Origin: Anaerolineae bacterium
GTDB lineage: Bacteria > Chloroflexota > Anaerolineae > UBA1429
Direction of reading: 5' to 3'
DNA: 56,047 bases
Assembly: GCA_021162655.1 (NCBI GenBank)
Contig: JAGGYI010000138.1
Location: 1 to 56,047 of the forward strand
A program made the position numbers and the translations under genes. This document shows positions 34,366-51,355 of the stretch, one piece after another (within the stretch, counting starts at the first letter, position 1; every line of letters starts with the position of its first letter). The notes under the pieces are model-generated. The model was not told the origin of the DNA, ran no database searches, and saw only the letters and a list, made by a program, of their open reading frames with translations.

Positions 34366-35873
34366 CCACTATATCCCAACGCTCGCAAGCCTTGTAGTAT
34401 GGCCTCGTGATCGCTCCAGGGATGCTCAACTGTGCCAAAACACATCGAGCGCTCATGCCCCTTGCCAGTGACGATGACCACGTCCCCTGGCTGTGCCATG
34501 CTCAGAGCTTGGGCAATGGCCTCCGCTCGGTCGGGCACTCGCCAAAAGTCCTGGCCTTCTTGGCAGCCTGCCTGAAGGCACCCCTGGGCAATCTCCTCAA
34601 TGATCTGCTCCAAAGGCTCGGTGCGGGGATCCTCGGCAGTGATAAAGACGCGATCTGCCAACTGCCCAGCAATCCGCCCCATCCAAGGGCGTTTGGCTCG
34701 GTCGCGCAGGCCAGCACAGCCAAAGACGACGCTCACCTTTCCTTGGGCAAGCTGACGCGCGGTGCGTAGGGCGTTCTCCAAAGCGTTTGGGGTGTGAGCA
34801 AAATCTACGATCACAGTGAAGGGCTGGCCCCGATCGATGCGCTCCATCCTCCCCGGCACTCCTCTCATCGCAGAAATTCCCTGCCGGATGGCCTCCATGG
34901 GCAGCTCCAAGGCATAACCCACACTCACTGCCGCCAGAATGTTGTAAACGTTATAACGTCCTATCAAAGGAGAGAAGAGGGATAGTATCCGGCCACCCAG
35001 AGAAACGACCAGGCTCAGCCCTGAAGGCCCTTCCTGAATCTCTTCGGGCCGTACCTGGGCAGTGCGCCGCAATCCATAAGAGATGTATAGATCGGCCGGG
35101 AAAGCGCGCAAATAATCATAAGAGGGGTCATCGGCATTGAGCACCGCCACTTTTTTCATCCCCGGCTTGCACAACGAACGGCCCAGAGCGCGAAAAAGCA
35201 GCCCCTTGGCCTCTCGGTAGGCTTCATAGGTCTTGTGGTAATCTAGATGCTCGTGGGTAATGTTGGTGATTACCGCCACGTCAAATTCGCAGGCAGCCAC
35301 ACGATGCTGGGCCAACCCGTGGGAAGTCGTCTCCAACACGGCATACTCCATCCCCCGAGAGACCATCTCTGCCAAATAAGCCTGCACCTCGGGAGCATCG
35401 GGAGTGGTAGTGTGAAAGCCAGTGGGCACCTCTTGCCCACCAATGAACGCGCTCACCGAATCCACCGAGCCAGTGGCATGCCCTGCAGCCCGCAAAATCG
35501 CCGAGATGAGCCGCACAGTAGTCGTTTTGCCATCGGTGCCCGTCACCCCGATGACCCTGAGCTGACGCGCTGGAAACCCCTGAAGCGCTGCATGGAGGTA
35601 AGCAAAGGCCTCTCGTGAATTCGGCACCAACACCGTTGGGGTTCCCGTCAACTCTGGCAAAAGGCGCTCAACGACACAAGCCACCGCCCCCGCCTGAAGG
35701 GCATCCCCAACAAAGCGATGCCCATCCACCGAAACCCCAGAGATAGCCACGAAAAGATCCCCAGGTGCCACCTGGCGAGAATCACAAACGACGTGCTCTA
35801 TCTGCACCGGCCGCCAATGGAGCCGCTCCGCCTTGGGCAACGCATCGACTAGCTCATCCAGAGAAACCACCAT
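34362..35873 (-). CDS. murE: UDP-N-acetylmuramoyl-L-alanyl-D-glutamate--diamino-acid ligase
   Basis: Mur ligase P-loop GVTGTDGKTTT. Full three-domain length. The position of the DNPR specificity motif reads EDPR (Arg retained), so diamino-acid specificity is not resolved. Confidence 0.9.
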   Translation of the reverse strand: MVVSLDELVDALPKAERLHWRPVQIEHVVCDSRQVAPGDLFVAISGVSVDGHRFVGDALQAGAVACVVERLLPELTGTPTVLVPNSREAFAYLHAALQGFPARQLRVIGVTGTDGKTTTVRLISAILRAAGHATGSVDSVSAFIGGQEVPTGFHTTTPDAPEVQAYLAEMVSRGMEYAVLETTSHGLAQHRVAACEFDVAVITNITHEHLDYHKTYEAYREAKGLLFRALGRSLCKPGMKKVAVLNADDPSYDYLRAFPADLYISYGLRRTAQVRPEEIQEGPSGLSLVVSLGGRILSLFSPLIGRYNVYNILAAVSVGYALELPMEAIRQGISAMRGVPGRMERIDRGQPFTVIVDFAHTPNALENALRTARQLAQGKVSVVFGCAGLRDRAKRPWMGRIAGQLADRVFITAEDPRTEPLEQIIEEIAQGCLQAGCQEGQDFWRVPDRAEAIAQALSMAQPGDVVIVTGKGHERSMCFGTVEHPWSDHEAILQGLRALGYSG

Positions 35874-35930
35874 ACCCCTCTCCCTTTTGCCTGTTCCCTC
35901 TCAACTCTACCCAGGAGCCTCCCAGGCGTC

Positions 35931-35962
35931 AAAAAAGGCCCCGCGCCTTTGCATGCGGGGCC
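35931..35962 (-). terminator. rho-independent terminator ending the hydrogenase gene string
   Basis: On the minus transcript: GGCCCCGC, 10-nt loop, GCGGGGCC, then UUUUUU (plus A6 at 35931..35936). It lies 24 nt downstream of the polyferredoxin stop. Confidence 0.8.
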
Positions 35963-35985
35963 TCTATGGAGACAATGAAAGAACT

Positions 35986-36885
35986 TTATTCCTCTGCTCC
36001 CATCAGGAGACGGTCAAGCACTGCCTTGCGCCGCTTCTGCTGAGCCTTGACATCATATTCGCGAACCACTTCGCGGAAGGAGACCAACTTTTCCAATGCC
36101 TTAGCCCAAGCCCCCGATTCAATCGGCGTGTGCACAAAGCCCGTGCGCACAATGCGAATGGCTCCCTCCACCGGGCAGACCCGCTCGCAAGCCCCACAGA
36201 AAAGGCAGAAGCGCTTATCCACCGCCACCTTCTGGCCATCATACGTAATGGCATTGGTAGGACAAGCATCGACGCAAGCCTGGCAGCCCTCTGGGCAGAG
36301 AGAGGTGTCCAGAAAAACTCGGCCTTTGTAGGGCTTGGTTACTGTAAAGGCTCCCTCTGGCCCTTCTTCCATACAGCGAGTACAGTTCACGCAAAGGCCT
36401 TTATCCACCTGCACGTTCTTGACTGCCACCACCTGGCCCTGAGCATCTCGCTCAATATCGGCGCTGATCGCCCCCACTGGGCAATTCTCGATATAAGAAA
36501 TATCTGTAGTAGCCTCGCAGGCCTCTTCATCCACTTTATTAACCCGAATGAGCATGGGGAAGGCCTCTCCCTTGATCACCGGGATCTCGGGTTGCCCATT
36601 GATCATCATCGAAAGGGCATGCATGGGGCAGGTTACCACGCATTCTCCACAGAAGCTGCATTTCTCCTCATCGATATCCACACGTGGCTTGGCCACCAAG
36701 CGCCCCTCCTCGACCACCGGTTCCGAGAGCGTGATGGCCTCGTGGGGGCACACTATGGCACACGTGCCACAGCCACAACACCTCTCATGATCAACCGACA
36801 ACTCGTAGCGCCGGGTGATCATGGGCCGCAAAAGGGTCAAGGTCGTGGCCGTCTCTCGCTTGATGGTTTTTCCTCTTGTAGGCAT
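35986..36885 (-). CDS. polyferredoxin-like iron-sulfur protein (MvhB-like)
   Basis: Four canonical CxxCxxCxxxCP motifs (CCGCGTCAIVCP, CSFCGECVVTCP, CPEGCQACVDACP, CLFCGACERVCP) plus two degenerate ones. Starts 17 nt after the hydrogenase large-subunit stop. Confidence 0.8.
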   Translation of the reverse strand: MPTRGKTIKRETATTLTLLRPMITRRYELSVDHERCCGCGTCAIVCPHEAITLSEPVVEEGRLVAKPRVDIDEEKCSFCGECVVTCPMHALSMMINGQPEIPVIKGEAFPMLIRVNKVDEEACEATTDISYIENCPVGAISADIERDAQGQVVAVKNVQVDKGLCVNCTRCMEEGPEGAFTVTKPYKGRVFLDTSLCPEGCQACVDACPTNAITYDGQKVAVDKRFCLFCGACERVCPVEGAIRIVRTGFVHTPIESGAWAKALEKLVSFREVVREYDVKAQQKRRKAVLDRLLMGAEE

Positions 36886-36902
36886 CTTCTCACCCTTTCA
36901 CC

Positions 36903-38372
36903 CTATTTCTCATTGCGGCGAAGCTGGAGCACCAAATCCCCCTGATGATCGAGAACTGAAACCTCCAGGTCCATCTCCCCTGGCAGGGCATGCGTCGCAC
37001 AGGCAAAACAGGGGTCATAAGCTCGGAAGGCCATTTCTATGCGGTCAAGCAACCCCTTGGTAATCACCTTCCCTCCGCTGATCAACTCCTGCGCCGCTCG
37101 CTTGATCGACATACAGATGGCCCCATGGTTGTTCGTCGTCCCCACAATGAGGTTCACCTTTTTGAGAATACCCTTCTCGTCGGTGATATAGTGATGCGTC
37201 AACGTGCCACGGGGAGCCTCCACCGTGGCCACTCCCTCACTAGGAGTCTCAGTGGGAATAGTGCGAATATTGGGATCGGTGATCTCTGGATCCTTGGCCA
37301 GCTCCAGCACCCGCTCACCAGCGTAGAGTATCTCGATAAGGCGCGCCCAATGGGTGGCTAGCGTCGCATGTACGGGCTTGCCCCCCATATAGTCGTAAAA
37401 CTCTTCATAAGCTTCTTGTGCAAGGGGAGTCGCCATGCCATCAGCCACGTTCAAGCGCCCCAAGGGCGTAGCACGATAGATCCCGCTATCCATGCCATCC
37501 ACCAAGCCCTTCCAGCCAAACTTTTTCAGATAGGGGAATTTGAGATAGGTCCAGGGCTCCACATGCTCAGCGATGTGCTTGGTGTACTCCTCAGGACGAT
37601 ACTTGGCCACTTCATTGCCCTCTACATCGACCACCCGAATGAGCCCATCGTAAAAGTTCACCCGGTTCTTCTCATCTACTAGCCCCATGTTGTGGGTATA
37701 GTGGAGATAGGCCTTGCTAAAGACCATATCCCGGAATTCATCACTCCCCAGGACGGCCTCTCGCCAAAGCTCGAGGGAAAACGTGCCAAACTCCACAAAG
37801 TGCTCTCCTAACTCGATAAGGCGTTGCTGCATCTCGGGGGTAACCCCCTTGGCTACCCCTCCTGGCAAGGCCATAACCGGATGGACGAACCGGCCTCCCA
37901 ACATGGCGACGAGTTCATGGGTCTCCTGGAGGTGCTGAATAATTCGCTTGCCAATCTTGAGGCCCACCTTGCTCACCAGCCCCAGGATGTTTCGCTGCGC
38001 CGGATCTGCATCGGGGCCAACGAAAAAGTCTGGCCCAGAGAGGACGAAAAAGTGGGTCGCATGATCGCCAGAGACGAACGCATTGTAAGCCAACTCGCGA
38101 ATCTTGACCGCCGCCGGAGGAGGCTGGACTTTAAAGACGGCATCCCCTGCCTTGGCTGCCGCCATATGGTGTGCCATAGGGCAGACGCCACAGATGCGCT
38201 GGGTAATCCGAGGCATCTCCTCTACTGGACGTCCCTCACAAAAGGCCTCAAAGCCTCGAAACTCGGGAACCTGAAAGTAAGCATTGGCAACATCCCCTTT
38301 TTCATCCAAAAAGATGGTGATCTTGCCATGCCCTTCCAAACGCGTGATGGGATCTATAACGATACGCCTCAC
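36903..38372 (-). CDS. mvhA: [NiFe] hydrogenase large subunit, group 3c (MvhA-like)
   Basis: N-terminal MRRIVIDPITRLEGHGKI.. L1 motif RICGVCPMAH. C-terminal DPCFACATH followed by a 28-aa tail (maturation-protease type). The GTG start forms a GTGA overlap with the small-subunit stop. Confidence 0.92.
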   Translation of the reverse strand: MRRIVIDPITRLEGHGKITIFLDEKGDVANAYFQVPEFRGFEAFCEGRPVEEMPRITQRICGVCPMAHHMAAAKAGDAVFKVQPPPAAVKIRELAYNAFVSGDHATHFFVLSGPDFFVGPDADPAQRNILGLVSKVGLKIGKRIIQHLQETHELVAMLGGRFVHPVMALPGGVAKGVTPEMQQRLIELGEHFVEFGTFSLELWREAVLGSDEFRDMVFSKAYLHYTHNMGLVDEKNRVNFYDGLIRVVDVEGNEVAKYRPEEYTKHIAEHVEPWTYLKFPYLKKFGWKGLVDGMDSGIYRATPLGRLNVADGMATPLAQEAYEEFYDYMGGKPVHATLATHWARLIEILYAGERVLELAKDPEITDPNIRTIPTETPSEGVATVEAPRGTLTHHYITDEKGILKKVNLIVGTTNNHGAICMSIKRAAQELISGGKVITKGLLDRIEMAFRAYDPCFACATHALPGEMDLEVSVLDHQGDLVLQLRRNEK

Positions 38373-39394
38373 TGCTCAACCTCCTCCTCACTCCCGTCCG
38401 CCTGAGACGCACAGATTCGGCCCGCCTCTTCAGGGTTCGCCTTGAGCTGCTGGAGAAACGAATCAGCAAAACTAAAGCGATAGAACGTCCCCAATGGATC
38501 CACAATGGTAGAAAGAACCTGGCGGATCTCCGCATCACTCTTGCCCTCAAAGCTGGCAACGATGGCGCCCAGCAAGGCCGCTCCCTGATCCACCACACCA
38601 TCGGGAGGGCCATAACAGCCTCGACAGGGCATGTTCGCCTCGATGCAGAGAGCTCCGCAGCCTGCATGGGTCGCCGGGCCTGCACAGAGGATGCCCTGCT
38701 CCAACAGACACCGATCGGGGTCTGGAACGATCTCATGAGGGCGGAAGAAACGCTCCACTCGAATCTTTCCCTCGCGTTTGCGCGGGCACTGATCGCAGAC
38801 CGTCCTACTATCCACCCCCAAAAGGCCCCCCCTGGACGGGAGTTTATTCTCTATAATGGCCGTCATCACCTTCCACACCTGCTCATAATGCGGAGGGCAA
38901 CCCGGCACTTTGTAATCTACCGGCACAACCTGCGCCAGAGTGCGCACCTGATTGCAGAGACCAGGAAGTATCAGCTCCCCCTCTGGCATCCCAAAGCGAC
39001 GCTGAGGGAGAACCTTCTCTGGGTTCACAGTGGAGGGGTTCTCAAACATGGCGCGGTTGAGGGCATAATCTATCCCCTTGATATTGCTCAAGCTAGGGAT
39101 ACATCCCTCCATCGAGCAAGAGCCAAAAGCTACGAGAACCTTGCTTTTGCGCCGTAGCAGACGGGCGATGTGCTCATCCTCCTCCGTACGAATGGAGCCA
39201 TTGAAAAGGGTCACATCAATAGCCCCGTCCTCCATGGCCTCCACGTCATCGTATTTGAAATCGGTAGCCGCCGGCCAAAAGACAATATCTGCCACCTGGG
39301 CAAGTTCCAAAAGGTGCTCGCCCAACTCGACGATGGCGATGTCACAGCCACCACAGCTCGAGGCCCAATAAACAGCTAAATTGAGTTTACCCAT
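38369..39394 (-). CDS. mvhG: [NiFe] hydrogenase small subunit (MvhG-like)
   Basis: Trimmed to ATG 39394, preceded by GAGGAG. MGKLNLAVYWASSCGGCDIAIVE.. C-terminal Cys-rich cluster region (CDQCP..CLLEQGILCAGPATHAGCGALC..PCRGCYGP). Confidence 0.85.
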   Translation of the reverse strand: MGKLNLAVYWASSCGGCDIAIVELGEHLLELAQVADIVFWPAATDFKYDDVEAMEDGAIDVTLFNGSIRTEEDEHIARLLRRKSKVLVAFGSCSMEGCIPSLSNIKGIDYALNRAMFENPSTVNPEKVLPQRRFGMPEGELILPGLCNQVRTLAQVVPVDYKVPGCPPHYEQVWKVMTAIIENKLPSRGGLLGVDSRTVCDQCPRKREGKIRVERFFRPHEIVPDPDRCLLEQGILCAGPATHAGCGALCIEANMPCRGCYGPPDGVVDQGAALLGAIVASFEGKSDAEIRQVLSTIVDPLGTFYRFSFADSFLQQLKANPEEAGRICASQADGSEEEVEQ

Positions 39395-39426
39395 ATTTCT
39401 CCTCGCCGATGGCAAATGACAGAACT

Positions 39427-40419
39427 CTATGCTACAACGGGCACCGAGGCTTTGATCTCCTCTACCATCTCCCGCACAAGCCTGGGGAAGAGGAAACGAT
39501 CCAGCGAGCCCGACTCGGCAAAGCGTACTCGACTCTTGGCGATGCCCAGTTGTTCCAGCATCTGCTCCAAGAGGGCCACCTTGCTCCGCCCCAAGTAGGT
39601 ACCACGTTGATAGTGGCACTCTCCTTCCTTGCACCCCACCACGAGCACACCATCAGCTCCCTTGGTGAGGGCCATCAAGATCATCGCCGGATCTACCCGA
39701 CCTGAACAAGAGAGGTTGACGATGCGGAGCTGATCGCTCTCGAGCCCCCGGATCTTTTCCCACTCACGATCGGAGTGAATGCTCCATTGACAGACAAAAG
39801 CCAGGATACGGGGTTCCTCTGCTCCTCCTTGAAGGTACCCGGGCTTTTCAAGCCAGCCACCTGCCCCCATCCGCGAGATCAGCTCACGATCGCTGATGGA
39901 TTCGAGGTTCATCGCCCCAGAGGGACAAGCAGCCACACAGATTCCACACTTCATGCAAAGCGTCTTGGTCACCTGAGCTACTGTGCGCTCCTCACCATCT
40001 ACCACCTTGGTCACCCTCTCGATGGCCTCATAAGGGCATGCCCGAGTACAGACGGCACACCCTGAGCAAATCTGCTCATCCACCTCAGGGAAGGGCCCTG
40101 GCGGCTCATACCCCTCGCGGATGGCGATATTGCGGATGGCCTTCATCACCTCAGAGATGTGAATCTGCTTAGGACAGCGAGGGTAGCACAGATCACAAGC
40201 CGAGCATTGCCAGATCTCCTCGCTCGAGAGCACCTCCTCACGTAGACCCAGCCCCGCCTTGTGGAGAATCAACCGGGGATTGAAGGAAGGGTCAAAGCGC
40301 CGCACCAAACAGGTGGCCGCACATGTGCCACAAGACCAACAGGTGATGAGATGCTCTCCGCCGGGCTCAGCCATCACCTCCTGAACAAAGGAGCGATCCA
40401 GCTCGTCCGACCGAATCAT
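39427..40419 (-). CDS. fusion of HdrC-like 4Fe-4S dicluster domain, 2x[4Fe-4S] ferredoxin and MvhD-like domain
   Basis: CWSCGTCAATC..CSACDLCYPRCP (HdrC-like). CSGCAVCTRACP..CMKCGICVAACP (ferredoxin). C-terminal ILAFVCQWSIHSD..LSCSGRVDP..VVGCKEGECHY (MvhD/FlpD-like). ATGA overlap with the hdrA stop. Confidence 0.8.
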   Translation of the reverse strand: MIRSDELDRSFVQEVMAEPGGEHLITCWSCGTCAATCLVRRFDPSFNPRLILHKAGLGLREEVLSSEEIWQCSACDLCYPRCPKQIHISEVMKAIRNIAIREGYEPPGPFPEVDEQICSGCAVCTRACPYEAIERVTKVVDGEERTVAQVTKTLCMKCGICVAACPSGAMNLESISDRELISRMGAGGWLEKPGYLQGGAEEPRILAFVCQWSIHSDREWEKIRGLESDQLRIVNLSCSGRVDPAMILMALTKGADGVLVVGCKEGECHYQRGTYLGRSKVALLEQMLEQLGIAKSRVRFAESGSLDRFLFPRLVREMVEEIKASVPVVA

Positions 40420-42908
40420 GCCATCACCTCCTTCTCTACCTCTTGCTCCTCTTCATCCTTGAGGAAAGGAGCCATATGAGGTGTCATCATCCACCGTCGC
40501 AAGCGTTTTTCAATCGCCGGACGAGCCCTCTCCGTCTCGGCGCGGAGCTCCTCTTTATCAAAGCTGGCCAGTTTCTCGCTCATCTCGGTGATGACTCGGG
40601 CGTACTTTTCACCTTCAGCCGCCGAGATCCACTCCACCCGGAAGCGCTCCGGATTGATGCCTAGCCGTTCCAGCGTGCGTGGCACTCGGCTGAAACGCTT
40701 GGCCGCCACCTGCTGGCCCGTGATATAGTGGCAATCCTGGGGGTGGCACCCAGAGACGAGGACCATCCCTGCTCCTCGGCGGAAAGCCTCGAGGATGAAC
40801 TCCTGGTCCATACGCGCCGAACACATCACCCGAATGCCTCGCGAGTTAGAGGGGTACTCAAAGTGGCTGGTACCCGCGCTATCGGCGCCACCATAGCTGC
40901 ACCAGTGGCACATAAAGACGAGGATCTTTTCTTCGGGATTCTCCCGCAAGAGTTCGCGAATCTGGGCGACGATCTGAGCATCGGTAAAGTGATCCTGGGT
41001 GATGGCATCATGGGGGCATTCGGCCGCACAGCCACCACAGCCATGGCATTTAGCCTGGATAATTTGAGCGGGCTGCCCCGGCTCCACAATGATGGCATTA
41101 TAAGGGCAGGCCTGGGCACAGATGCCGCATTTCTTACCCTGCGCACTGATACAAAGCTCAGGCCAGACCTTGGCAACGATCGGCTCGATCTCCCATGTAT
41201 CGGAAGTGAGAACCCTAGCCGCCCGCGACGCCGCTGCACTTCCCTGGGCCACGCTCGCAGGGATATCCTTGGGCCCCTGAGCAGCACCCGCGAGGAAAAC
41301 GCCATCGCTGGGCGAATCCACCGGACGCAACTTGGGGTGATACTCCATATAGAAGCCGCTGGGGCTACGCGAAAGAGCCAACACCGAAGAAAGGCGCTCC
41401 GTATCAGCCTGGGGGATGGCCGCTGTCGAAAGAGAGACCATCTCCACCTCAAGCTCGATGACCTCACCCAGCTCCTGATCCTCCACCTCGACAAAGAGGT
41501 TATGGGTCTCGGGGTCCTCGGTGATCTGCGAAGGACGCCCACGGATAAAGCGAATCCCTGCCGCTCGGGCACGGTTGTAGAACTCTTCATAGCCCTTCCC
41601 CGGAGTACGGATATCCATATAGAGGATAGTAATATCCATGTCCGGATAGGTCTGATGGAGAAGGAGGGCATTCTTGATGGTATACATGCAGCAAAAGCCC
41701 GAGCAATACTCCATAAAGCGAGAATCGCGAGAGCCCACGCACTGGATCATGGCAATGCTCTTTGGCGTCTTACCATCCGAAGGACGCACAACTCGCCCTA
41801 CCGTAGGCCCAGACGAGTTACTTAGGCGCTCAAGCTCCATGGCTGTGATGACATTCGGATAGACGCCATAACCGTATTCGGGGATCACGGCGGGGTCAAA
41901 AGTCTCAAACCCCGTCGCCACAATAATCGAACCCACATCGAGTTCAACAAACTCGGGCTCCTGCGAGAAGTCGATAGCATCCAGCTTACCGCAGGCCTCA
42001 ACGCACTTGTAGCAACGGATGCAGTGGTCAATATCGATCGCGTAAACCAAGGGAACCGCCTGGTCATGCGGCACATCGATGGCTTTGCGCGGGGCGATAT
42101 CCATTTCAAAACTATTGGGCACCTCAATAGGACACACCCGAGCGCACTCCCCGCAGCCATTGCAGCGGTCTTCGATAACATAGCGAGGCTTTTTCATCAC
42201 CTCGACACGGAAATTGCCGATGTAGCCATCAACCTTGGTAACTTCTGAATAGGCCAGAATTTCAATGTTGGGGTGACGCGCCGCGTCAACCATCTTGGGC
42301 GCGAGAATTCAAATGGAACAGTCCATCGTGGGGAACGTCTTGTTGAGCTGAGCCATCGTTCCCCCAATGGACAGATCCTTCTCCACCAAATAGGTATGGA
42401 TGCCCATATCGGCCAAGTCTAGCGCGGCACTGATGCCCGCCACACCGCCACCAATGACCAACGCTTTCTTGGTCACTGGCACGGTAATCATCTGGAGAGG
42501 CGAGACATAGCGCACCTTGGCCACCGCTGCCGCAACCAAATCTTTGGCCTTTTGCAGAGCCCCTTCCGGATCGTGCGCATGCACCCAGGTATCCTGTTCC
42601 CGGATGTTGGCCATCTCCATCAAGAAGGGATTCAAGCCCGCCTCAGCCACACAGGCTCGGAAGGTGGGCTCGTGCATCCGCACGCTACAAGCCGCCACAA
42701 CAACACGGTTGAGCTTGTGCTCGATAATGTCCCGTTTGATCATATTCTGGCCGGGATCACCACACATATAGAGATAGTCCTTTGCCAGAACCACCCCAGG
42801 CAGGTGTGAGGCGAACTCGGCCACCTCCGCAGGATCGATCACACCACCGATGTTGGAACCGCAACTACAAACGTAAACCCCTATGCGCAGTTCCTCGTTA
42901 TCTGCCAT
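40416..42908 (-). CDS. hdrA: heterodisulfide reductase subunit A-like flavoprotein fused to MvhD domain, with in-frame UGA (putative selenocysteine) at 42309..42311
   Basis: ORF-track entries 42309..42953 and 40416..42293 are in one frame, separated only by TGA plus five sense codons. Joined product: [76 protein letters not shown].. Also present: inserted and C-terminal ferredoxin motifs ([44 protein letters not shown]) and a C-terminal MvhD domain ([36 protein letters not shown]). ATG 42908 has AGGAG upstream. Confidence 0.85.
42272..42291 (-). promoter_or_regulatory. SECIS-like hairpin 18 nt downstream of the UGA
   Basis: mRNA GGU(U)GACG-CGGCG-CGUCACC: a 7-bp stem with one bulged U and a 5-nt G-rich loop, spanning +18 to +37 after the UGA. 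An alternative pairing, CGCGCC(+5..+10)/GGCGCG, also exists. Confidence 0.4.
42309..42311 (-). other. in-frame UGA, candidate selenocysteine codon in hdrA
   Basis: Minus-strand reading: ATG GAC TGT TCC ATT TGA ATT CTC GCG CCC AAG ATG GTT GAC. The TGA occupies the position of the second Cys in the conserved HdrA DCS(M/I)C-ILxPK motif. Confidence 0.7.
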
Positions 42909-42951
42909 ACTGTAGCTCCTGAAGGGATAAAACTCGATACACCACCAAGAC

Positions 42952-42988
42952 AAAAAGGGTAAAGGGGAAGGTAAGCTCCCCCTTTACC
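42952..42988 (-). terminator. terminator-like hairpin between the ferredoxin gene and hdrA
   Basis: On the minus transcript, directly after the TAA at 42989..42991: GGTAAAGGGG, 11-nt loop, CCCCTTTACC, then C-UUUUU-G. Confidence 0.5.
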
Positions 42989-43486
42989 TTAACTCTCTTC
43001 AACAAGTTCCTCAAAGAGACGCTGGACAACCTCACGTCGGATCTGCTGCCGTAGGACCTCGGGGGTCGTTACCGAAAGGGCCTCTGTGGGGCAATACTCG
43101 ACACAACGAGGCCCACCCTCCTCATCCTGGCAGAGATCGCAGATCTCAACAACCTTGGTCGCAGGGTTCAGCACGATCGCGCCGAAATCGCAAGCCTCGA
43201 TGCACCAACCGCAACCATCGCATTTGTCCCCATCCACCAGGATGATGCCATTCTCCTCCGAGCGCGAAAGCGCATCACGCGGGCAAGCGAGCACGCAGGG
43301 CGCATCCGCACAGAGGCGGCAAGTGACAGCCAGCATCGTCACCGGCTCAATGCGCACCACTCGAATGCGCGAAAGCGAGGGGTCGAACGTGCCCGTCTTG
43401 GTCATTGAACAGGTGTATTCACATATCCGGCAGCCAATGCACTTGTCGGGATCGCAAACAACGAATTCATAGCCCTTTTCTGCCAT
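42989..43486 (-). CDS. 4x[4Fe-4S] ferredoxin-like electron-transfer subunit (DmsB/AorA/YdhY-like)
   Basis: CIGCRICEYTC, CRLCADAPCVLACP, CDGCGWCIEAC, CDLCQDEEGGPRCVEYCP. AAGGAGG lies 7 nt upstream of the ATG. Starts 2 nt after the AOR stop. Confidence 0.85.
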   Translation of the reverse strand: MAEKGYEFVVCDPDKCIGCRICEYTCSMTKTGTFDPSLSRIRVVRIEPVTMLAVTCRLCADAPCVLACPRDALSRSEENGIILVDGDKCDGCGWCIEACDFGAIVLNPATKVVEICDLCQDEEGGPRCVEYCPTEALSVTTPEVLRQQIRREVVQRLFEELVEES

Positions 43487-43488
43487 GG

Positions 43489-45366
43489 TCAGGCCTCCTT
43501 GCTCGAGGGGTTCGCCACAGGCTCCGCCTCCACGCCGATCTCCTCAGCGATGTCCTCCAACCCTAGCTCGATCAGCGTAGACTTGGGAATCAAGCCATCC
43601 TTTGTCCAACCACGGGCCAAATAGTACTCCTCAATACCCTGCCGAACTTCATCGGGATTGAGAACAGCCCCCTTTGAAGGCCCCTCAGGGATAGGATCCT
43701 CAAAGAGCCGCGCGGGCAGCCAGTCATCCGCCTTGGTCCAACCCTCGCGGATGTTAAAAGCTTTCTTCAGGTTCACCACACGCGTCCCCACCATACGCAG
43801 CTCCTCCGCCGTCATGGGGATACCTGTGGCCATGGTATAGATGCGGGCAACATCCTCATAAAAATTCTCAAAGCAGTTGCGGATGAACTTGCAGAGCACG
43901 AGGCAATCCAAGATTGCGGCAAAGTCCTCCTTCTGGATGATCAATGGCGCCCGGCCCGGCTCCCAAACAAAGCGATCGACGACGCCCTTGATATCCAGCT
44001 CATAAGAGAGCGCCCGGTTATGGCAAGGTCCACGTGCGCAGACGGCCAAACCTATGGCAAAGGTTTTCAGACTACGCACATCATAGCCAGGCATCTCCAG
44101 CCCCTTGACTTGCATGGCGAAATGGTCGCTTCCCTTGCCGACCTTGGCTGCAGCTCGCTTGGTGCCCTCAGCAAGGAGATCTCCGATTCCCTCGCGATAG
44201 GCTATTTTGCGAATGAGCTCGACGGCTGCCTCATCGTTGCCAAAGTGAGGCTCCAGGCCATCAAAATCCTCTTTTGTCAGAATGCCTCGCTCATAGCATT
44301 CCATGGCCCAGCTGACGATCACGCCGGCGCTCATAGCGTCTATCCCTAGCTCATCGCAAAGCTGCACCAGTTTGATGATCGGAGGCAACTCCCCAATGCC
44401 ACAGTTGGGGCCCAGAGCAAAGAGGGGCTCATAGTCCAGACCAATGATAGCGCCCTTGTACTTGCCCTCTTTTACAGCCACCCACTTTTCGCAGCCGATG
44501 GTACAACCTGCGCACCCCACGTCTTTGATCACATAGTGCTCGCGCATGTACTCGCCGCTGACCAGATCAGCATGCTCAAAGACGGTCTCGCGGAAGTTGC
44601 GGGTGGGGAGGACGCCCATCTTGTTCATATTGAGCACGTTTGCCGGTGTTCCCAACGTACGGTACTTGGCCGTTCCAGGCCCCCGGCTCGCCTTGATCAG
44701 CTTGAGCGTCTCTCGCATCAGCCCCTCTGGGTCAGCTACTGTGATCGGATGGGACCCTCGGATAGCGATCGCCTTGATACGCTTGGACCCCATCACCGCG
44801 CCATTGCCTGTACGGCCCACCTGCCGGCCGTCGTTATCGATCGAAGCTATGCGCACCAAGCGCTCCCCTGCAGGGCCGATGGCACTGACGCGAACATTCT
44901 CATCCCCCAGCTTCTCACGGATTGCGCGCTGAGTCTCCATAGTGGTCATCCCCATATAGGGGCTTGCATCAAAGAATTGAACCTCGTCATCGTCGATAAA
45001 GATGACGACCCAATCGGGAGACTGCCCCTTGATCACAATGCCATCCCACCCCGCCCGGCGGAGCATCTCAGCAAAGTGGCTCCCAGAGAGCGAATCCCCT
45101 ATAAAGCCCGTCAGAGGGGACTTGGAAGCGACGCCATGCTTGGTGCCCACGGGCATGGTTGTGCCGGCAAAGGCGCTGCAGGCAAAGCAAAGCGCATTAT
45201 CCGGCCCCAGAGGGTCGCACCCTTTGGGCGTGTTATCATAGACGAGCCGCGTCGCTAACCCCACACCACCGATGTACTTTTTCAAGAACTCGGGCCCAAC
45301 CTCCTGCACCCAGGTCTTGCGTGTCGTCACATCGATGTGCAGGATCTTCCCAGTGTAGCCATACAT
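43489..45366 (-). CDS. aor: aldehyde:ferredoxin oxidoreductase family (tungsto-/molybdo-pyranopterin enzyme)
   Basis: Trimmed to ATG 45366, preceded by AGGAGG. MYGYTGKILHIDVTTRK..GGVGLATRL.. [4Fe-4S] motif GCAGCTIGCEK. 625 aa, collinear with archaeal/bacterial AOR by eye. Confidence 0.92.
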   Translation of the reverse strand: MYGYTGKILHIDVTTRKTWVQEVGPEFLKKYIGGVGLATRLVYDNTPKGCDPLGPDNALCFACSAFAGTTMPVGTKHGVASKSPLTGFIGDSLSGSHFAEMLRRAGWDGIVIKGQSPDWVVIFIDDDEVQFFDASPYMGMTTMETQRAIREKLGDENVRVSAIGPAGERLVRIASIDNDGRQVGRTGNGAVMGSKRIKAIAIRGSHPITVADPEGLMRETLKLIKASRGPGTAKYRTLGTPANVLNMNKMGVLPTRNFRETVFEHADLVSGEYMREHYVIKDVGCAGCTIGCEKWVAVKEGKYKGAIIGLDYEPLFALGPNCGIGELPPIIKLVQLCDELGIDAMSAGVIVSWAMECYERGILTKEDFDGLEPHFGNDEAAVELIRKIAYREGIGDLLAEGTKRAAAKVGKGSDHFAMQVKGLEMPGYDVRSLKTFAIGLAVCARGPCHNRALSYELDIKGVVDRFVWEPGRAPLIIQKEDFAAILDCLVLCKFIRNCFENFYEDVARIYTMATGIPMTAEELRMVGTRVVNLKKAFNIREGWTKADDWLPARLFEDPIPEGPSKGAVLNPDEVRQGIEEYYLARGWTKDGLIPKSTLIELGLEDIAEEIGVEAEPVANPSSKEA

Positions 45367-45370
45367 ACTC

Positions 45371-45649
45371 TTAACCTCCTGCCTCCACAAACATGAGTAA
45401 AAGTTGTTGTCCATCCTGGGCGGGCATGTCGAGATCTTTGATCACGCGCCTGCCATTGAGGTTCAACATATAGGAAGGGACGAGATCGAAGGTCTCTGGC
45501 ACGATCACCGGCCCCACTAGACGAGGAAAGTGTAGAGCCAGGTAACGTAGCACATCTCGCCACGTCGCCTGGCCCTCTAATTGCACAGTGCATTCGCTTG
45601 TCTGAGCCAAATTGCGCGCTAGCCCCAAAAACTCAACAGTGAGCTGCAT
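45371..45649 (-). CDS. MoaD/ThiS-family ubiquitin-like sulfur-carrier protein (C-terminal Gly-Gly)
   Basis: 92 aa, MQLTVEFLGLARNLAQ.. ending ..LLLMFVEAGG immediately before the stop. The stop lies 4 nt before the AOR start. Confidence 0.75.
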   Translation of the reverse strand: MQLTVEFLGLARNLAQTSECTVQLEGQATWRDVLRYLALHFPRLVGPVIVPETFDLVPSYMLNLNGRRVIKDLDMPAQDGQQLLLMFVEAGG

Positions 45650-45747: not shown

Positions 45748-45756
45748 CTATGATAG

Positions 45757-45785
45757 ATTATACAGAAGTTCTTGGCAAAAAGCAA
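45757..45785 (-). promoter_or_regulatory. candidate promoter for the moaD-like/aor string
   Basis: On minus: TTGCTT (45785..45780), 17-nt spacer, TATAAT (45762..45757). This would give a ~100-nt leader before ATG 45649. Confidence 0.5.
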
Positions 45786-46898: not shown

Positions 46899-47171
46899 AT
46901 GAGCAAGAGGAAAAAGCGTTCCCGTTCAGCGGCAGCTCGCCGGAAGAAAAGGCTTGCCACCCAACAGAGGACGGCCGTCCAGCAAACCCAAACCGCCCCT
47001 GTGGCACCCAAAGAGAAAGGACAAAGCAGGGGAAGGCAATCCCGCCAGGCAGCAGCCAAGGTGGATTTTGCCAGCGAGTACCATTACGTGATCAACGATC
47101 TCAAGCGCCTTGCCCTTACAGCGCTGGCCATGTTCGCCACCCTCATCACCTTAGCGCTGGTGCTCCGCTGA
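46899..47171 (+). CDS. small protein with highly basic N-terminus and C-terminal TM helix, unknown function
   Basis: GAAAGGAGAG RBS. MSKRKKRSRSAAARRKKR.. then ..LALTALAMFATLITLALVLR. Confidence 0.5.
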   Translation: MSKRKKRSRSAAARRKKRLATQQRTAVQQTQTAPVAPKEKGQSRGRQSRQAAAKVDFASEYHYVINDLKRLALTALAMFATLITLALVLR

Positions 47172-47909
47172 GGGGAGTACCTCTGTTGAGCTCTCTTGGG
47201 CGTTTTTTCGGCCAAGCAGCGGCCAGGTCAAGGCAAAAACCAATGCCCTCCCCAAAAGAGCGGCCCAGAGGCTGCCCAGGAGGACAAAAAGCAGAGTGCT
47301 CACCCAGTCCAGAGCCCAGGTGAGGGCAATCAGTAAACGTCGCGAGGAATGTGGCACACGGATATGCTCTCTACTGCTTAGCCAACCCAACCCTCCACGA
47401 AGGAAAAGGGCACACCAAGCTCCCCAATAACTCCCGAGCAGAGGAGCACACCCTGCACGCAAGATCGCCAGAGCGCTCTCTTGGCCTAAAAGACGCAGGA
47501 CCTGGCTGCTCTGTCGGCTCCAAAGAGGGCTATGGGCTCTCCAGAGCTCTGCTTTCTTGGCTCCCAAAAGGAGCACAACGATCCATAGACCCAAGCCCAA
47601 AACGATGCCAAAAGCCTTCCAAAGCTCTGTGGGTGAGCCTCGGGGCAAGCAAAGCCCTACATCCAAAGGGGAAAAGAATCCCTCCACCAAAGCGGCATAG
47701 AGATAAAGAACGGTAAAAAACACTCCCGCTACCTGGCCCAGCAAAGGCCAACCACCCCAAAAGCGCAACCTTAAAAGCCTTGGGTGTGCCCGATCAACAA
47801 ACCGCCAACGGAGGAACGGTCTAAGCCCTCGCACTAGGACCTCTAGCCCCAAATAAAGCCCCCCAGCAGCCAAGGCCATCCACACTTCGGGGCCCATCTC
47901 CCTTTGCAT
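47151..47909 (-). CDS. hypothetical polytopic membrane protein
   Basis: Hydrophobic ORF with 6 or more helices. Start uncertain: ATG 47909 follows AAGGAG, while the ORF track uses GTG 48017, which would overlap a plus-strand TTGACA hexamer. No confident family motif. Confidence 0.45.
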   Translation of the reverse strand: MQREMGPEVWMALAAGGLYLGLEVLVRGLRPFLRWRFVDRAHPRLLRLRFWGGWPLLGQVAGVFFTVLYLYAALVEGFFSPLDVGLCLPRGSPTELWKAFGIVLGLGLWIVVLLLGAKKAELWRAHSPLWSRQSSQVLRLLGQESALAILRAGCAPLLGSYWGAWCALFLRGGLGWLSSREHIRVPHSSRRLLIALTWALDWVSTLLFVLLGSLWAALLGRALVFALTWPLLGRKNAQESSTEVLPSAEHQR

Positions 47910-48066
47910 TGCACTCCTTAGGAGGATCGTTTCCTCGATTGTACGTTCTCCCCAGTCCTTGTCAAAGTTTGCTGGCGGCTCGGCTTTCTCAAGCGCTCTG
48001 CTTTTTGCTTGACACACCTCCCCCCAGGAATGTATGTTATCTACAGTTCAAGGAGGTAAAGGTTCT

Positions 48067-48810: not shown

Positions 48811-48814
48811 AAAA

Positions 48815-49867: not shown

Positions 49868-49879
49868 GAGGCAAGGGAG

Positions 49880-50923: not shown

Positions 50924-51355
50924 ATGTTCAAGCGAATGGACCATGTGGCCATTAGCGTCAAGGATATGGAAAAGGCCATCGCCTTTTACCGTGACGTCAT
51001 CGGTATGGAAAAGGTCTTTGACCGCGAGTTCTCGGAAGGCATGGCCAAACTCATCGGAGTGGAAGGCACCCGTGTGCGCATCGTCCACATGCGCCTGGGA
51101 GATTCCGTCGTCGAGCTTTTTGACTACAAATATCCCCCCGGCCGTGAGCCTCCACCTGATCGCCAGCAGAGCGACTATGGGCTCATCCACATCGGCTTTA
51201 TCGTCGAAGACTTTTGGGGGACTTACCAGCATCTACTCGATCACGGCGTCAAGTTCCTGGGCGAGCCCGTCGAGATCCGCCCGGGGGTCTTTGTCGCTTA
51301 TTTCCACGGCGTCGAGTACGAAGTCTGCGAGATCCGCGAGATCGTAAAGAGCTAA
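50924..51355 (+). CDS. VOC-family protein (glyoxalase/methylmalonyl-CoA epimerase-like)
   Basis: MDHVAISVKDMEKAIAFYRDVIGM.. and a second half ..LIHIGFIVEDFWGTYQHL... The ATG directly abuts the previous stop. Confidence 0.8.
   Translation: MFKRMDHVAISVKDMEKAIAFYRDVIGMEKVFDREFSEGMAKLIGVEGTRVRIVHMRLGDSVVELFDYKYPPGREPPPDRQQSDYGLIHIGFIVEDFWGTYQHLLDHGVKFLGEPVEIRPGVFVAYFHGVEYEVCEIREIVKS

Follow-up and report, generated by a model that had tools for sequence, protein, structure and literature searches.

An aldehyde oxidoreductase–HdrA–hydrogenase gene string with an interchangeable redox module: a candidate aldehyde-bifurcating complex in Anaerolineae

In a contig of an uncultured Anaerolineae bacterium (JAGGYI010000138.1, assembly GCA_021162655.1; its 56,047 nt are referred to below as the window), eight co-directional genes on the minus strand (g1 to g8, from 45649 down to 35986) combine an aldehyde oxidoreductase (AOR) module, an HdrA-MvhD flavoprotein, a [NiFe] hydrogenase and a polyferredoxin. 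In homologous loci the AOR module remains linked to HdrA, and the hydrogenase is exchanged for other redox modules. As a favoured, though tentative, explanation we postulate that the products of this string could form a three-port machine analogous to WorABCSL but of the Hdr type, bifurcating aldehyde electrons between H2 and ferredoxin. With about 100 relatives, whose slot also carries formate-, NAD(P)H- and disulfide-linked modules, the family points to an undescribed and widespread type of energy-coupling enzyme.

Gene content of the string

An ORF check of the window recovered all eight genes described in an earlier sequence-only reading, with exactly the same junctions (4, 2, 80, -4, 32, -4 and 17 nt), and Pfam and NCBIfam domain content agreed with the gene identities proposed there. 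Shine-Dalgarno-like G/A-rich stretches precede the starts, most clearly those of g2, g3, g5 and g7. Upstream of g1 there is a sigma-70-like promoter candidate on the minus strand (TTGCCA-17-TATCAT, 45750..45778; 10 of 12 consensus matches), which is a consensus match only, such sites being no commoner in the region than in shuffled sequences. A Zn-alcohol dehydrogenase gene is found about 4 kb from the string.

The first three minus-strand genes constitute the AOR module. Gene g1 (45371..45649) encodes a MoaD/ThiS-like protein of 92 aa with a C-terminal GG, which scores 27 bits, under the cut-off, against the NCBIfam MoaD family and is the leading gene in almost every related locus. WorX is a ThiS-like protein adjoining WorL genes (PMC13328260), and g1 is probably involved in pyranopterin cofactor maturation rather than being a subunit. 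The W/Mo-pyranopterin aldehyde:ferredoxin oxidoreductase large subunit, WorL, is encoded by g2 (43489..45366), which matches Pfam AFOR_N (E 9e-72) and AFOR_C (E 3e-129) and, among PDB entries, 1aor (401 bits), WorL 9mqx_D (371), AorB 8c0z (344) and, with only 214 bits, BamB 4z3w. Alignment with PDB matches indicated that Thr243, Glu313, Tyr427 and His448 of the P. furiosus AOR, as well as the four [4Fe-4S] cysteines, are kept, and by sequence g2 is an AOR of the aldehyde-oxidising type. The WorS-type ferredoxin subunit g3 (42989..43486) has 16 Cys in four [4Fe-4S] motifs and a charged C-terminal tail predicted to be helical; its closest solved relative is WorS of the bifurcating WorABCSL (9mqx_E, 111 bits), followed by WOR5-S (98), AorA (87) and BamC (49).

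The central minus-strand gene, g4 (40416..42908), encodes an 830-aa selenoprotein in which HdrA is fused to MvhD, scoring 1103 bits against the NCBIfam HdrA2 model (cut-off 1100). Its FAD/TrxR core is accompanied by two ferredoxin domains (one inserted, one C-terminal), by a canonical MvhD domain and by a C-terminal tail specific to the family. Residues 5-656 are collinear with M. thermolithotrophicus HdrA (5odc_A, 875 bits), and the FlpD/MvhD domain (residues 662-781; 121-133 bits to 5odc_D and 9sw2_D) retains a motif of 10 residues in 110 of 110 loci, invariant to the module in the slot. Judged by this homology, g4 is a canonical bifurcating-type HdrA.

Recognition of g4 as a single gene depends on taking the in-frame UGA at 42309..42311 (minus strand) as selenocysteine, a feature that we add to the earlier description. 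The codon lies in a motif of 14 residues with a CxxU pair and is TGA in 118 of 119 motif matches in the related loci and the window; Cys replaces Sec in L049, a locus from Bathyarchaeia, as well as in L144's second HdrA paralogue, and 5odc_A also carries Cys at the aligned position. A SECIS-like hairpin (42271..42291, minus strand; GG-UGACGC-GGC-GCGUCA-CC) lies 21-41 nt past the U of the UGA. Its folding energy is by itself unremarkable and it had no Rfam match; it shows no variation in 97 unique sequences, and synonymous positions in its codons (+7 to +11) reach 98-100% fixation, compared with a mean fixation of 0.64 and a maximum of 0.89 in 50 other invariant-residue codons.

The remaining genes, also on the minus strand, encode the hydrogenase side. 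The adaptor g5 (39427..40419), identified from Pfam and NCBIfam domains, is a fusion of an HdrC-like two-cluster domain (residues 1-105, here HdrC'; match to the N-half of HdrC TIGR03290 at 26-104), a 2x[4Fe-4S] ferredoxin domain (106-195) and a relaxed MvhD domain (196-330; FlpD/MvhD match at 205-323) that lacks the YGGAD motif and has a variable second Cys. Genes g6 (38369..39394; MvhG/VhuG type, NCBIfam VhuG 211 bits, Pfam Oxidored_q6) and g7 (36903..38372; MvhA/VhuA type, group 3c-like, NCBIfam VhuA 365 bits) encode the small and large [NiFe] hydrogenase subunits. The latter starts with GTG, contains the motifs RICGVCPMAH and DPCFACATH with all active-site ligands being Cys, ends in a 28-aa extension of the kind cut off by the maturation protease, and has MvhA 5odc_F as its top PDB match (372 bits). 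Finally, g8 (35986..36885) encodes an FmdF/FwdF-MvhB-like polyferredoxin (NCBIfam FwdF 149 bits) with 22 Cys, four canonical CxxCxxCxxxCP motifs and partial ones; its PDB matches are FwdF (9sw6_H and 5t5i_F, 137-138 bits), FmdF (7bkb_K, 137) and MvhB (82). No HdrB (CCG) domain was found among the window ORFs of at least 100 aa, a scan that took in all of these except a spurious antisense ORF (35833-36945), in agreement with the absence of HdrB noted before.

Linkage of the AOR module to HdrA

The AOR and HdrA genes adjoin each other whichever of them is used as the seed: HdrA lies downstream in 40 of 41 AOR-seeded loci, and in HdrA-seeded loci AOR is upstream in 40 of 42 and the four-cluster ferredoxin (Fd4) in 59 of 62. 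The neighbouring murE, taken as a control for background synteny, is adjacent in only about 45-50% of loci (29/64 to 31/59). The sequence-only reading had tied AOR functionally to the HdrA-Mvh string and named non-conserved adjacency as evidence that would speak against it; the adjacency held from both sides and supports the tie.

A different view would be that the locus brings together two neighbours, a WorLS aldehyde:ferredoxin oxidoreductase (Class II WOR) and a separate HdrA-Mvh-polyferredoxin complex with some other third substrate, which we regard as improbable. Consistent with it, and counting against our favoured model in this genome, a strong terminator-like hairpin (42958..42988, minus strand) abuts the g3 stop codon, with a 13-bp stem followed by CUUUUUG, a folding energy of -21.5 kcal/mol (z -3.5) and none of 200 shuffles folding equally well; the hairpin flagged earlier at 42952..42988 is thus real. 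The related loci examined also have a broad g3-g4 spacer (~33-390 nt, a few >700), well beyond the short gaps between the other genes, the lineage has some non-functional synteny such as that of murE, and a few loci carry the two parts separately, namely HdrA strings without AOR (L110, L115, L129 and L158) and AOR-Fd4 without HdrA (L030, probably also L029 and L032), L110, L129, L158 and L030 supporting this view. However, the adjacency reaches 95-98% from both sides, far above that of murE, and survives at least five module swaps as well as the rearranged, convergent layout of Bathyarchaeia, in which AOR-Fd4 stays beside HdrA-HdrB-polyferredoxin. Moreover, the hairpin is not conserved, a terminator-like motif of any sort being present in only ~10 of 106 orthologous g3-g4 spacers, no promoter-like site was found between the hairpin and g4, and an HdrA core deprived of AOR would have only two obvious ports.

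The interchangeable slot and the direction of electron flow

Between HdrA and the polyferredoxin, related loci carry Mvh (36 loci), a HydBG/Flx-like NAD(P)H module (17), a selenocysteine FdhA (9), HdrCB (5) or g5 alone (4), and g8 closes the string in the 73 complete loci regardless of slot content. The HydB/HydG-like subunits of the NAD(P)H-module relatives resemble FlxB/FlxA. HdrBC as the conserved partner elsewhere, which the sequence-only reading had named as evidence that would speak against it, proved to be a minority alternative and not a general one: HdrCB occurs in 5 of the 73 complete loci, where it replaces g5 and the hydrogenase and never accompanies g5 and a donor module.

The exchange leaves its mark inside g5. 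Across all slot states the HdrC' domain is 80-82% identical and HdrA 79-89%, whereas the identity of the g5 ferredoxin and MvhD domains falls from 65-69% to 40-42% once Mvh is replaced; the HdrC' domain tracks HdrA, the other two domains track the swapped module, and the recombination breakpoint lies inside g5. This co-variation suggests that the hydrogenase most likely sits on the HdrC/HdrB port of methanogens, away from the canonical MvhD input. A mirror-tree test failed to discriminate between the ports, and their assignment draws on domain co-variation and homology.

This pattern bears on the headline of the sequence-only reading, in which H2 would be the mid-potential donor, entering through MvhD, and acid reduction at AOR would form the low-potential branch; such a scheme would call for a high-potential acceptor (HdrBC or another partner) encoded elsewhere in the genome. 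H2, formate and NADH are known HdrA donors in other systems (MvhAGD-, FdhAB-MvhD- and FlxABCD-HdrABC), MvhAG-MvhD-HdrA is the canonical donor route of methanogens, and g5-g6-g7-g8 mirrors the mvhDGAB order. We nevertheless consider this very unlikely. The potential of H2 is -414 mV and that of the acid/aldehyde couple -580 mV, so that reduction of an acid by H2 is endergonic by ~32 kJ/mol; it depends on coupling to an exergonic reaction, for which the locus encodes no acceptor. In addition, Mvh, Fdh, the NAD(P)H module and HdrCB are alternatives in one slot, HdrCB standing in place of g5 plus donor module and never with them in the 73 complete loci, and the HdrC' part of g5 belongs to the conserved core, the module-facing MvhD being the relaxed one. 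We favour aldehyde oxidation, and the second option of that reading, in which it drives H2 evolution or confurcation, is a better fit than the headline; the gene identities, the lack of HdrB and the AOR tie stand.

For our favoured model we infer a single cytoplasmic complex of the g1-g8 products, centred on the Sec-containing bifurcating-type HdrA-MvhD flavoprotein. The first port would be the tungsten AOR module, WorL with the four-cluster WorS, WorX helping in cofactor maturation; the second would be the [NiFe] hydrogenase MvhAG, joined through g5, whose HdrC-like domain would dock on HdrA at the methanogen HdrC site and whose ferredoxin and MvhD domains would pass electrons to MvhG. Placed through g5 on the HdrC site, the hydrogenase would belong to the exergonic ('high-potential') branch, with H2 evolution as its main activity. 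The third port would be the FmdF-like polyferredoxin, exchanging electrons at the ferredoxin level. Scarce aldehyde in vivo (E' about -480 to -500 mV) would reduce the HdrA flavin, from which one electron would run downhill to protons and the other to ferredoxin, according to 2 RCHO + 2 H2O + 2 Fd(ox) -> 2 RCOOH + H2 + 2 Fd(red) + 2 H+. In relatives the same core would work with formate dehydrogenase, an NAD(P)H module or HdrBC replacing the hydrogenase. The aldehyde-oxidising type of the AOR, its kept catalytic residues and the closeness of g3 to the WorS of WorABCSL argue for this model, and WorABCSL itself is reported to couple aldehyde oxidation to the simultaneous reduction of NAD+ and ferredoxin (PMC12318220; PMC13328260). 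FmdF/MvhB-type polyferredoxins dock on the low-potential output domain of HdrA (PMC13580544).

The need for HdrA is argued from physiological concentrations only, because at the standard potential of -580 mV aldehyde is able to reduce ferredoxin as well as protons without bifurcation. In a non-bifurcating 'aldehyde hydrogen-lyase', WorS, HdrA and g5 would just relay the electrons of aldehyde oxidation to the hydrogenase, giving RCHO + H2O -> RCOOH + H2 (about -32 kJ/mol), and the polyferredoxin would be a store or side wire. That reaction is exergonic unaided, and cluster 'nanowires' acting as electron relays only are known for AorABC, HDCR and WorS, but we give this option very little weight: a full bifurcating-type HdrA, with its 875 bits to 5odc_A, CxxU, canonical MvhD and both ferredoxin domains, would be needless for a wire, and the polyferredoxin is present in all slot states.

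The main rival, which we regard as unlikely, is the same complex with AOR reversed. Reduced ferredoxin would be the mid-potential donor, the exergonic electron would go to protons (in relatives to CO2, NAD(P)+ or disulfide), and the low-potential electron would pass through the polyferredoxin and/or WorS to the tungsten-AOR, converting a carboxylic acid to aldehyde; if true, this would mean acid activation or alcohol formation without ATP. The Bam complex has such a low-potential route from BamE through BamC to BamB, for which reduced ferredoxin can serve as donor (bioRxiv 10.64898/2026.04.10.717634), and since BamC, the WorS homologue, binds the HdrA-like subunit at its low-potential output, the analogy would put AOR at the acceptor end. 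FmdF/MvhB polyferredoxins, which g8 resembles, connect the low-potential output of HdrA to a W/Mo-pterin enzyme (PMC13580544), HdrA-MvhD fusions can accept reduced ferredoxin (PMC5296606), a syntrophic acetate oxidiser has been proposed to activate acetate through AOR without ATP (PMC6895022), and a hydrogenase on the HdrC port fits equally well. On the other hand, g2 and g3 are much nearer to aldehyde-oxidising AOR/WorLS than to BamBC (401 versus 214 and 111 versus 49 bits), the string has no aldehyde-consuming enzyme, the Zn-alcohol dehydrogenase being some 4 kb off, and a fermenter would have no obvious gain from spending reduced ferredoxin on H2 and aldehyde.

Comparison with known systems

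No description of a complex with this composition was found in the literature, including the June 2026 classification of tungsten oxidoreductases, in line with the sequence-only reading, which knew of no characterised one. Among the closest analogues is WorABCSL, the Class IV bifurcating tungsten oxidoreductase of Acetomicrobium mobile (PDB 9MQX), in which WorL and a four-cluster WorS, the counterparts of g2 (371 bits) and g3 (111 bits, its best solved relative), feed a flavin-based bifurcating core. Its demonstrated reaction, aldehyde to NAD+ and ferredoxin, would formally match that of the NAD(P)H-module relatives of our locus. The cores differ, being BfuABC (FMN, NuoEF-like) in WorABCSL and HdrA-MvhD (Hdr family, FAD) here, where no Bfu subunits are encoded, and so do the exergonic acceptors, NAD+ there and the [NiFe] hydrogenase in the window.

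The Class II benzoyl-CoA reductase BamBCDEFGHI of Geobacter metallireducens likewise places an AOR-family W subunit and a WorS-like FeS subunit on an HdrA-like flavoprotein, has an MvhD-like adaptor and is a selenoprotein complex. However, BamB is an aromatic-ring reductase whereas g2 is an aldehyde-type AOR by its scores (214 versus 401 bits) and catalytic residues, BamE is a fused double HdrA and g4 a canonical single one, and selenocysteine is located in the MvhD homologue BamF and not in HdrA as here. BamD (HdrBC-like) and BamGHI (Bfu-like) are missing, the hydrogenase and polyferredoxin being present instead.

The HdrA-MvhD fusion architecture, with the HdrA2 model passed, is shared with HdrA2B2C2 of Methanosarcina acetivorans and FlxABCD-HdrABC of Desulfovibrio, and ferredoxin is a possible donor for such fusions (PMC5296606). 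The HdrB2C2 partner is not in the window, and the AOR module and the HdrC'-ferredoxin-MvhD adaptor are foreign to both systems.

With the MvhAGD-HdrABC and Hdr-Fmd supercomplexes of methanogens (5ODC, 7BKB, 9SW6) the locus shares homologous HdrA (875 bits), MvhA (372 bits), MvhG, MvhD domains and FmdF-like polyferredoxin, as well as the idea of tying HdrA directly to a W/Mo-pterin enzyme acting at about -500 to -580 mV, and the exchange of Mvh for Fdh is known there also. In contrast to these systems, HdrB is absent here, only the two-cluster half of HdrC is left, joined to ferredoxin and MvhD domains, MvhD occurs twice, each time as a fused domain, and the tungsten enzyme is AOR instead of formylmethanofuran dehydrogenase. 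The host is a fermentative bacterium, and the hydrogenase and HdrBC, partners in methanogens, are alternatives in this family of loci.

The eight-gene string and its AOR–ferredoxin pair

The eight minus-strand open reading frames at 35986-45649 (-), called g1 to g8 from the MoaD-like gene to the polyferredoxin, were recovered where the sequence-only reading had placed them, with the same junctions of 4, 2, 80, -4, 32, -4 and 17 nt, and each assignment was upheld by Pfam and NCBIfam. G/A-rich Shine-Dalgarno-like stretches are present 5' of the starts, most clearly for g2, g3, g5 and g7. The first gene, g1, encodes a 92-aa MoaD/ThiS-like protein with a GG end that matches the WorX protein described beside WorL genes (PMC13328260), and it is followed by a full-length AOR (g2), a four-cluster-motif ferredoxin with 16 Cys (g3), an HdrA-MvhD fusion (g4), a protein combining an HdrC two-cluster half with a 2x[4Fe-4S] ferredoxin domain and an MvhD domain according to Pfam and NCBIfam (g5), hydrogenase subunits of MvhG and MvhA type (g6 and g7) and, from NCBIfam and PDB matches, an FmdF/FwdF-like polyferredoxin (g8).

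The AOR was examined against solved structures, among which its relatives are P. furiosus AOR (401 bits), WorL of WorABCSL (371 bits), AorB (344 bits) and BamB (214 bits). AFOR_N and AFOR_C domains extend across its full length (Pfam, E 9e-72 and 3e-129), and in the PDB search it aligns end to end with 1aor. Thr243, Glu313, Tyr427 and His448 (P. furiosus AOR numbering), listed as AOR catalytic and pterin-site residues (PMC13328260), are kept in the motifs YRT, DYE, PGYD and PCH, as are the four [4Fe-4S] cysteines of the P. furiosus enzyme (CAGCTIGC and LCKF). These features place g2 in the AOR/WOR family as a predicted aldehyde-oxidising enzyme of WorL type, whose exact sequence has no identical entry on record. 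The nearest solved relatives of g3 are WorS of WorABCSL, WOR5-S and AorA, and with a WorL adjoined by a four-cluster WorS across a 2-nt junction, the g2-g3 pair has the gene content of a predicted Class II WOR (WorLS).

The terminator-like hairpin after g3 (42958-42988, -), pointed out by the sequence-only reading, is real and strong (-21.5 kcal/mol, z -3.5) and is followed by a U-run. Terminator-like motifs of any kind were found in about 10 of 106 orthologous g3-g4 spacers; the hairpin thus appears to be specific to the window's lineage and, as it is not conserved, it is of no use for or against a family-wide operon split. No promoter-like site was found between the hairpin and g4. As a speculation, the hairpin could attenuate transcription and give an excess of WorLS over the core, which would match the ratios of the two known systems carrying such an excess of a WorLS-type unit, (SL)3:ABC and (BC)2:core.

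The window contains no hyp, sel, tup or tRNA genes, tRNA-Sec included, and its remainder consists of housekeeping genes. A co-directional plus-strand run 2.4 kb upstream of the string (48034-53557, +) encodes a short-chain dehydrogenase, an Ldh_2-family dehydrogenase, a Zn-alcohol dehydrogenase, a glyoxalase-fold protein and a fused E1 alpha-beta 2-oxoacid dehydrogenase component, enzymes that might produce or use up aldehydes. Next to enolase is a fused ADP-forming acyl/acetyl-CoA synthetase (11471-13657, -; CoA-binding, Succ_CoA_lig and ATP-grasp_5 domains), in keeping with a fermentative way of life that yields acids. An iron-sulfur and thiolation cluster at 15120-18975 (+) comprises an Rrf2 regulator, a hexapeptide transferase, an IscS/NifS-like class-V aminotransferase, a NifU_N scaffold and an MnmA-type tRNA thiolase, and a radical SAM pair, one member with a SPASM and the other with a B12-binding domain, lies beside an HTH protein at the contig edge (314-2817, -). 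Six open reading frames of 150-370 aa without a Pfam match (E <= 1e-6) were also found, at 47151-48017 (-), 53625-54089 (-), 23919-24530 (+), 25949-26674 (+), 28431-29549 (+) and 33637-34365 (+), several of which lie beside a gene for a MutL-like protein (PF13941) and one for a double zinc-ribbon protein.

Conserved linkage of AOR to a selenocysteine HdrA

Related loci were collected from two sides, 78 of them by searching one genome per species for the AOR and 80, at 67-85% identity, by searching metagenome contigs for HdrA, and their components were mapped by tblastn; the resulting counts take in related genomes and are not independent events. HdrA lies downstream of AOR and the four-cluster ferredoxin in 40 of the 41 AOR-seeded loci with enough flank, and in the HdrA-seeded loci the ferredoxin is upstream of HdrA in 59 of 62 and the AOR in 40 of 42, whereas murE adjacency, the control for background synteny, ranges from 29/64 to 31/59. 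Therefore, the AOR-HdrA adjacency from which the sequence-only reading had started is conserved in other genomes.

AOR relatives of at least 52% identity in the search of one genome per species all come from Anaerolineae or Chloroflexota MAGs, while tblastn mapping found no HdrA near AORs of 46% identity or less. Two Bathyarchaeia loci have AOR and the four-cluster ferredoxin beside HdrA-HdrB-polyferredoxin in a convergent layout. Exceptions to the linkage include L030, with no HdrA within 1.3 kb past the ferredoxin and a GNAT-like acetyltransferase ORF coming next, and L029 and L032, with no HdrA in flanks of less than 1 kb and a transposase-like or an Mrr-like ORF, respectively. HdrA strings without AOR occur in L110, L129 and L158, and in L115 a deletion remnant (ORF 8878-9405) joins the first ~125 AOR residues to the last residues of a WorS-type ferredoxin, with the MoaD-like gene and the HdrA-g5-NAD(P)H module-polyferredoxin string intact. 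The family of the complex is common: its members are found in many MAGs and metagenome contigs, mostly of Anaerolineae, named sources being bioreactor, activated-sludge and sediment assemblies, and the g5 family alone comprises 707 protein clusters (90% identity) at E <= 1e-20. Most of the bacterial relatives are uncultured Chloroflexota MAGs, mainly Anaerolineae.

The HdrA portion of g4 is collinear with that of 5ODC (residues 5-656 on 2-652 of 5odc_A, 875 bits), as expected of a bifurcating-type HdrA with all its domains, and its score against NF040770 (1103 bits, cut-off 1100, residues 8-786) assigns it to the predicted HdrA2 subclass, which has a C-terminal MvhD domain. The reading frame of g4 is a single gene only with read-through of an in-frame TGA (42309-42311, -), whose counterpart in 5odc_A is a Cys. 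Across the related loci and the window, 118 of 119 motif matches have TGA at this position, and a Bathyarchaeia relative has a Cys codon there. A SECIS-like hairpin (42271-42291, -) lies 21-41 nt past the UGA and is invariant in 97 unique sequences; synonymous sites in codons +7 to +11 are 98-100% fixed, compared with a mean of 0.64 and a maximum of 0.89 for 50 other nearby codons of invariant residues. No Rfam model matches this hairpin and its folding energy alone is not distinctive (z 0.35), so that the case for a SECIS element comes from synonymous-site invariance. A UGA at a Cys-homologous position followed by a hairpin under synonymous constraint argues that g4 is a bacterial selenoprotein. 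The selenocysteine would be the second position of a CxxC/U pair, and the homologous pair of benzoyl-CoA reductase is described in a preprint as redox-active and on the low-potential path (bioRxiv 10.64898/2026.04.10.717634).

Beyond the region covered by the HdrA2 model and by solved MvhD chains, g4 continues in a family-specific C-terminal tail (residues ~790-830; 40416-40540, -) with the motif R-P-x-I-x-K-R-L-R-R-W...P-x-M-A, which is conserved in all relatives and may be a docking helix. Its use as a marker of AOR docking was rejected, because AOR-less loci retain the tail as well. In L144 (~8095 and 9865-12447), a second HdrA paralogue with Cys (FPTNDCSMCILSPK), ~40% identical, is present a few kb downstream of the selenocysteine-HdrA string, past an HdrC-like gene.

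Exchangeable modules and the putative g5 adaptor

The gene content between HdrA and the terminal polyferredoxin was compared in 73 complete related loci. Besides the arrangement of the window, g5 with MvhG and MvhA (36 loci), this slot holds g5 with a small Fe-S protein, a HydB/AsrA-like protein and a HydG/AsrB-like FAD/NAD(P) subunit (17 loci), g5 with an Fe-S protein and a formate dehydrogenase alpha subunit (9 loci), HdrC with HdrB (5 loci), g5 alone (4 loci) or other content (2 loci). The formate dehydrogenase (TIGR01591, 840 bits, cut-off 666) has its own in-frame UGA at HCARL-U-HAPT (L009, 16701-18794; also L001, L024, L046, L048, L082, L084, L088 and L130), giving two predicted selenoproteins per string in those loci. 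The sequence-only reading had named HdrBC-like CCG-domain genes, as the conserved partner elsewhere, as evidence against itself; such genes do exist in 5 of the 73 loci (TIGR03288, 201 bits), but there HdrCB replaces g5 and the hydrogenase. Close relatives whose HdrA is 81-85% identical differ in slot state, indicating that exchange was recent and in place. In two Mvh-state loci (L002, 18582-19385; L092, 16115-16918), neither of which has a polyferredoxin match, MvhA is followed by a protein distantly related (26-27% identity) to the small Fe-S protein accompanying the formate dehydrogenase and NAD(P)H modules.

The point at which the modules are exchanged could be located within g5. In close relatives, whose HdrA domains are 74-89% identical to that of the window, its HdrC-like N-terminal domain (HdrC') is 80-82% identical to the window's in every module state, whereas identity over its ferredoxin and MvhD domains is 65-69% where the slot is in the Mvh state and only 40-42% where it is in the formate dehydrogenase or NAD(P)H state. 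This divergence by module points to a recombination breakpoint inside g5, HdrC' appearing to be part of the conserved core and the ferredoxin-MvhD half part of the swapped module. HdrA's own MvhD does not vary with the module and carries C-x-W-C-S-Y-G-G-A-D in 110 of 110 loci; the MvhD of g5 has no YGGAD and its second Cys varies (Ser 37, Cys 29, Ala 7, others). An apparent UGA in this motif in L132 was discarded as an out-of-frame false match. The protein covers only positions 3-80 of the 144 of the HdrC profile, and the idea that HdrC' is nearer to the family's HdrC than to methanogen HdrC was rejected, since its scores (39-41% identity, 79-88 bits) are like those of PDB HdrCs. In mirror-tree partial correlations, WorS, polyferredoxin and AOR all gave the same pattern against the individual HdrA domains, which did not tell the ports apart.

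Given the co-variation of domains and the mutual exclusion of HdrCB and g5-plus-module, the simplest reading is that g5 would connect the hydrogenase, or whichever module replaces it, to the port of HdrA that HdrC/HdrB hold in methanogens. HdrA's own MvhD, again on the simplest reading, would occupy its canonical flavin-proximal position.

Proposed direction of electron flow and comparison with known systems

The acid/aldehyde couple lies at about -580 mV and H+/H2 at -414 mV, and from these established potentials the reduction of an acid to aldehyde by H2 is uphill by ~32 kJ/mol. Therefore, the H2-driven bifurcation proposed at first, with acid reduction at AOR as the low-potential branch, needs an exergonic acceptor, and the locus encodes none, although genes for HdrBC or for other partners could lie in another part of the genome. 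In both wirings that are feasible, the hydrogenase would be an electron sink on the exergonic branch. In one of them, reduced ferredoxin would be the donor and AOR the low-potential acceptor, for which class II benzoyl-CoA reductase is a precedent (bioRxiv 10.64898/2026.04.10.717634), and HdrA-MvhD fusions accept reduced ferredoxin (PMC5296606). In the other, aldehyde would be the donor and ferredoxin the low-potential acceptor, reached via the polyferredoxin; methanogen FmdF/MvhB polyferredoxins dock at the low-potential output domain of HdrA (PMC13580544). We favour aldehyde as donor over reduced ferredoxin, which is less likely but plausible, since g2 and g3 closely resemble WorLS enzymes that oxidise aldehydes and since relatives in the NAD(P)H state would reproduce the reaction of WorABCSL, where this reaction type has been demonstrated and bifurcation has been argued to permit oxidation of scarce aldehyde amid abundant acid (PMC12318220, PMC13328260).

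We consider it possible, though somewhat short of an even chance, that WorLS hard-wired to a selenocysteine HdrA-MvhD, with plug-in modules on the exergonic (HdrC) port, constitutes an unrecognised class of both WOR and Hdr. The energy that anaerobes have to spend is set by flavin-based bifurcating enzymes, and to our knowledge an AOR-family tungsten enzyme is coupled to bifurcation in only two ways, Bfu-type WorABCSL and benzoyl-CoA reductase; the locus would be a third, Hdr-based one. If so, g5, currently annotated only as 'hydrogenase iron-sulfur subunit', would be a chimeric HdrC'-ferredoxin-MvhD adaptor in a system accepting a [NiFe] hydrogenase, a selenocysteine formate dehydrogenase, an NAD(P)H module or HdrBC, the hydrogenase would be the first on the high-potential branch of HdrA, and abundant fermentative Anaerolineae could bifurcate among acid/aldehyde, ferredoxin and H2, formate or NAD(P)H. 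One core with H2, formate, NAD(P)H and disulfide modules would be a natural experiment on the wiring of HdrA ports, the module-swapped relatives offering a handle on the role of the CxxU selenocysteine. The system would also bear on the disposal of aldehyde-derived electrons as H2 or formate by fermenters and syntrophs and, should the reaction run in reverse, on the ATP-free activation of acids.

A study of June 2026, which sorted more than 4,000 WORs into classes, treats only WorABCSL and BamB-I as bifurcating (Class IV) (PMC13328260); to judge by its criteria, enzymes like the present one may have been placed in Class II or III. In metagenomic papers on Chloroflexi, AOR, Hdr and Mvh appear as separate entries, and full-text literature searches turned up no account of an AOR-HdrA-Mvh complex. 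WorABCSL contains BfuABC (WorABC; NuoE/NuoF/HydA-like), of which there is none in g1-g8 or among window ORFs of at least 100 aa. Class II benzoyl-CoA reductase has a BamB-type subunit, BamD (HdrBC/HdrD-like, with CCG domains) and BamGHI (Bfu-like), whereas g2 matches BamB (4z3w) at only 214 bits, in two stretches, and the window has no CCG or NuoEF-like domains; an enzyme of Bam type was rejected on the AOR score, the AOR catalytic residues and the lack of BamD/BamGHI. With MvhAGD-HdrABC the string shares a bifurcating-type HdrA and group 3c-like MvhA/MvhG, with L1 and L2 motifs and 5odc_F as best PDB match of g7 (372 bits), the best NCBIfam models of g7 and g6 being VhuA (365 bits) and VhuG (211 bits), both under equivalog cut-offs. 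However, the HdrB of that complex, whose two CCG domains form the heterodisulfide site, and its full-length HdrC are not encoded in the window; none of the scanned ORFs of 100 aa or longer has a CCG domain, which bears out the absence of HdrB noted in the sequence-only reading. The free-standing MvhD that links MvhG to HdrA in that complex is here represented by fused domains only, canonical in g4 and with a relaxed motif in g5. HdrA2 systems reduce heterodisulfide with F420H2 or ferredoxin and have HdrB2C2 partners, neither of which is encoded in the window. The string is thus built from parts of neighbouring families while lacking defining features of each, and by analogy the complex most likely works like the WorABCSL, Bam and Mvh-Hdr families that supplied those parts.
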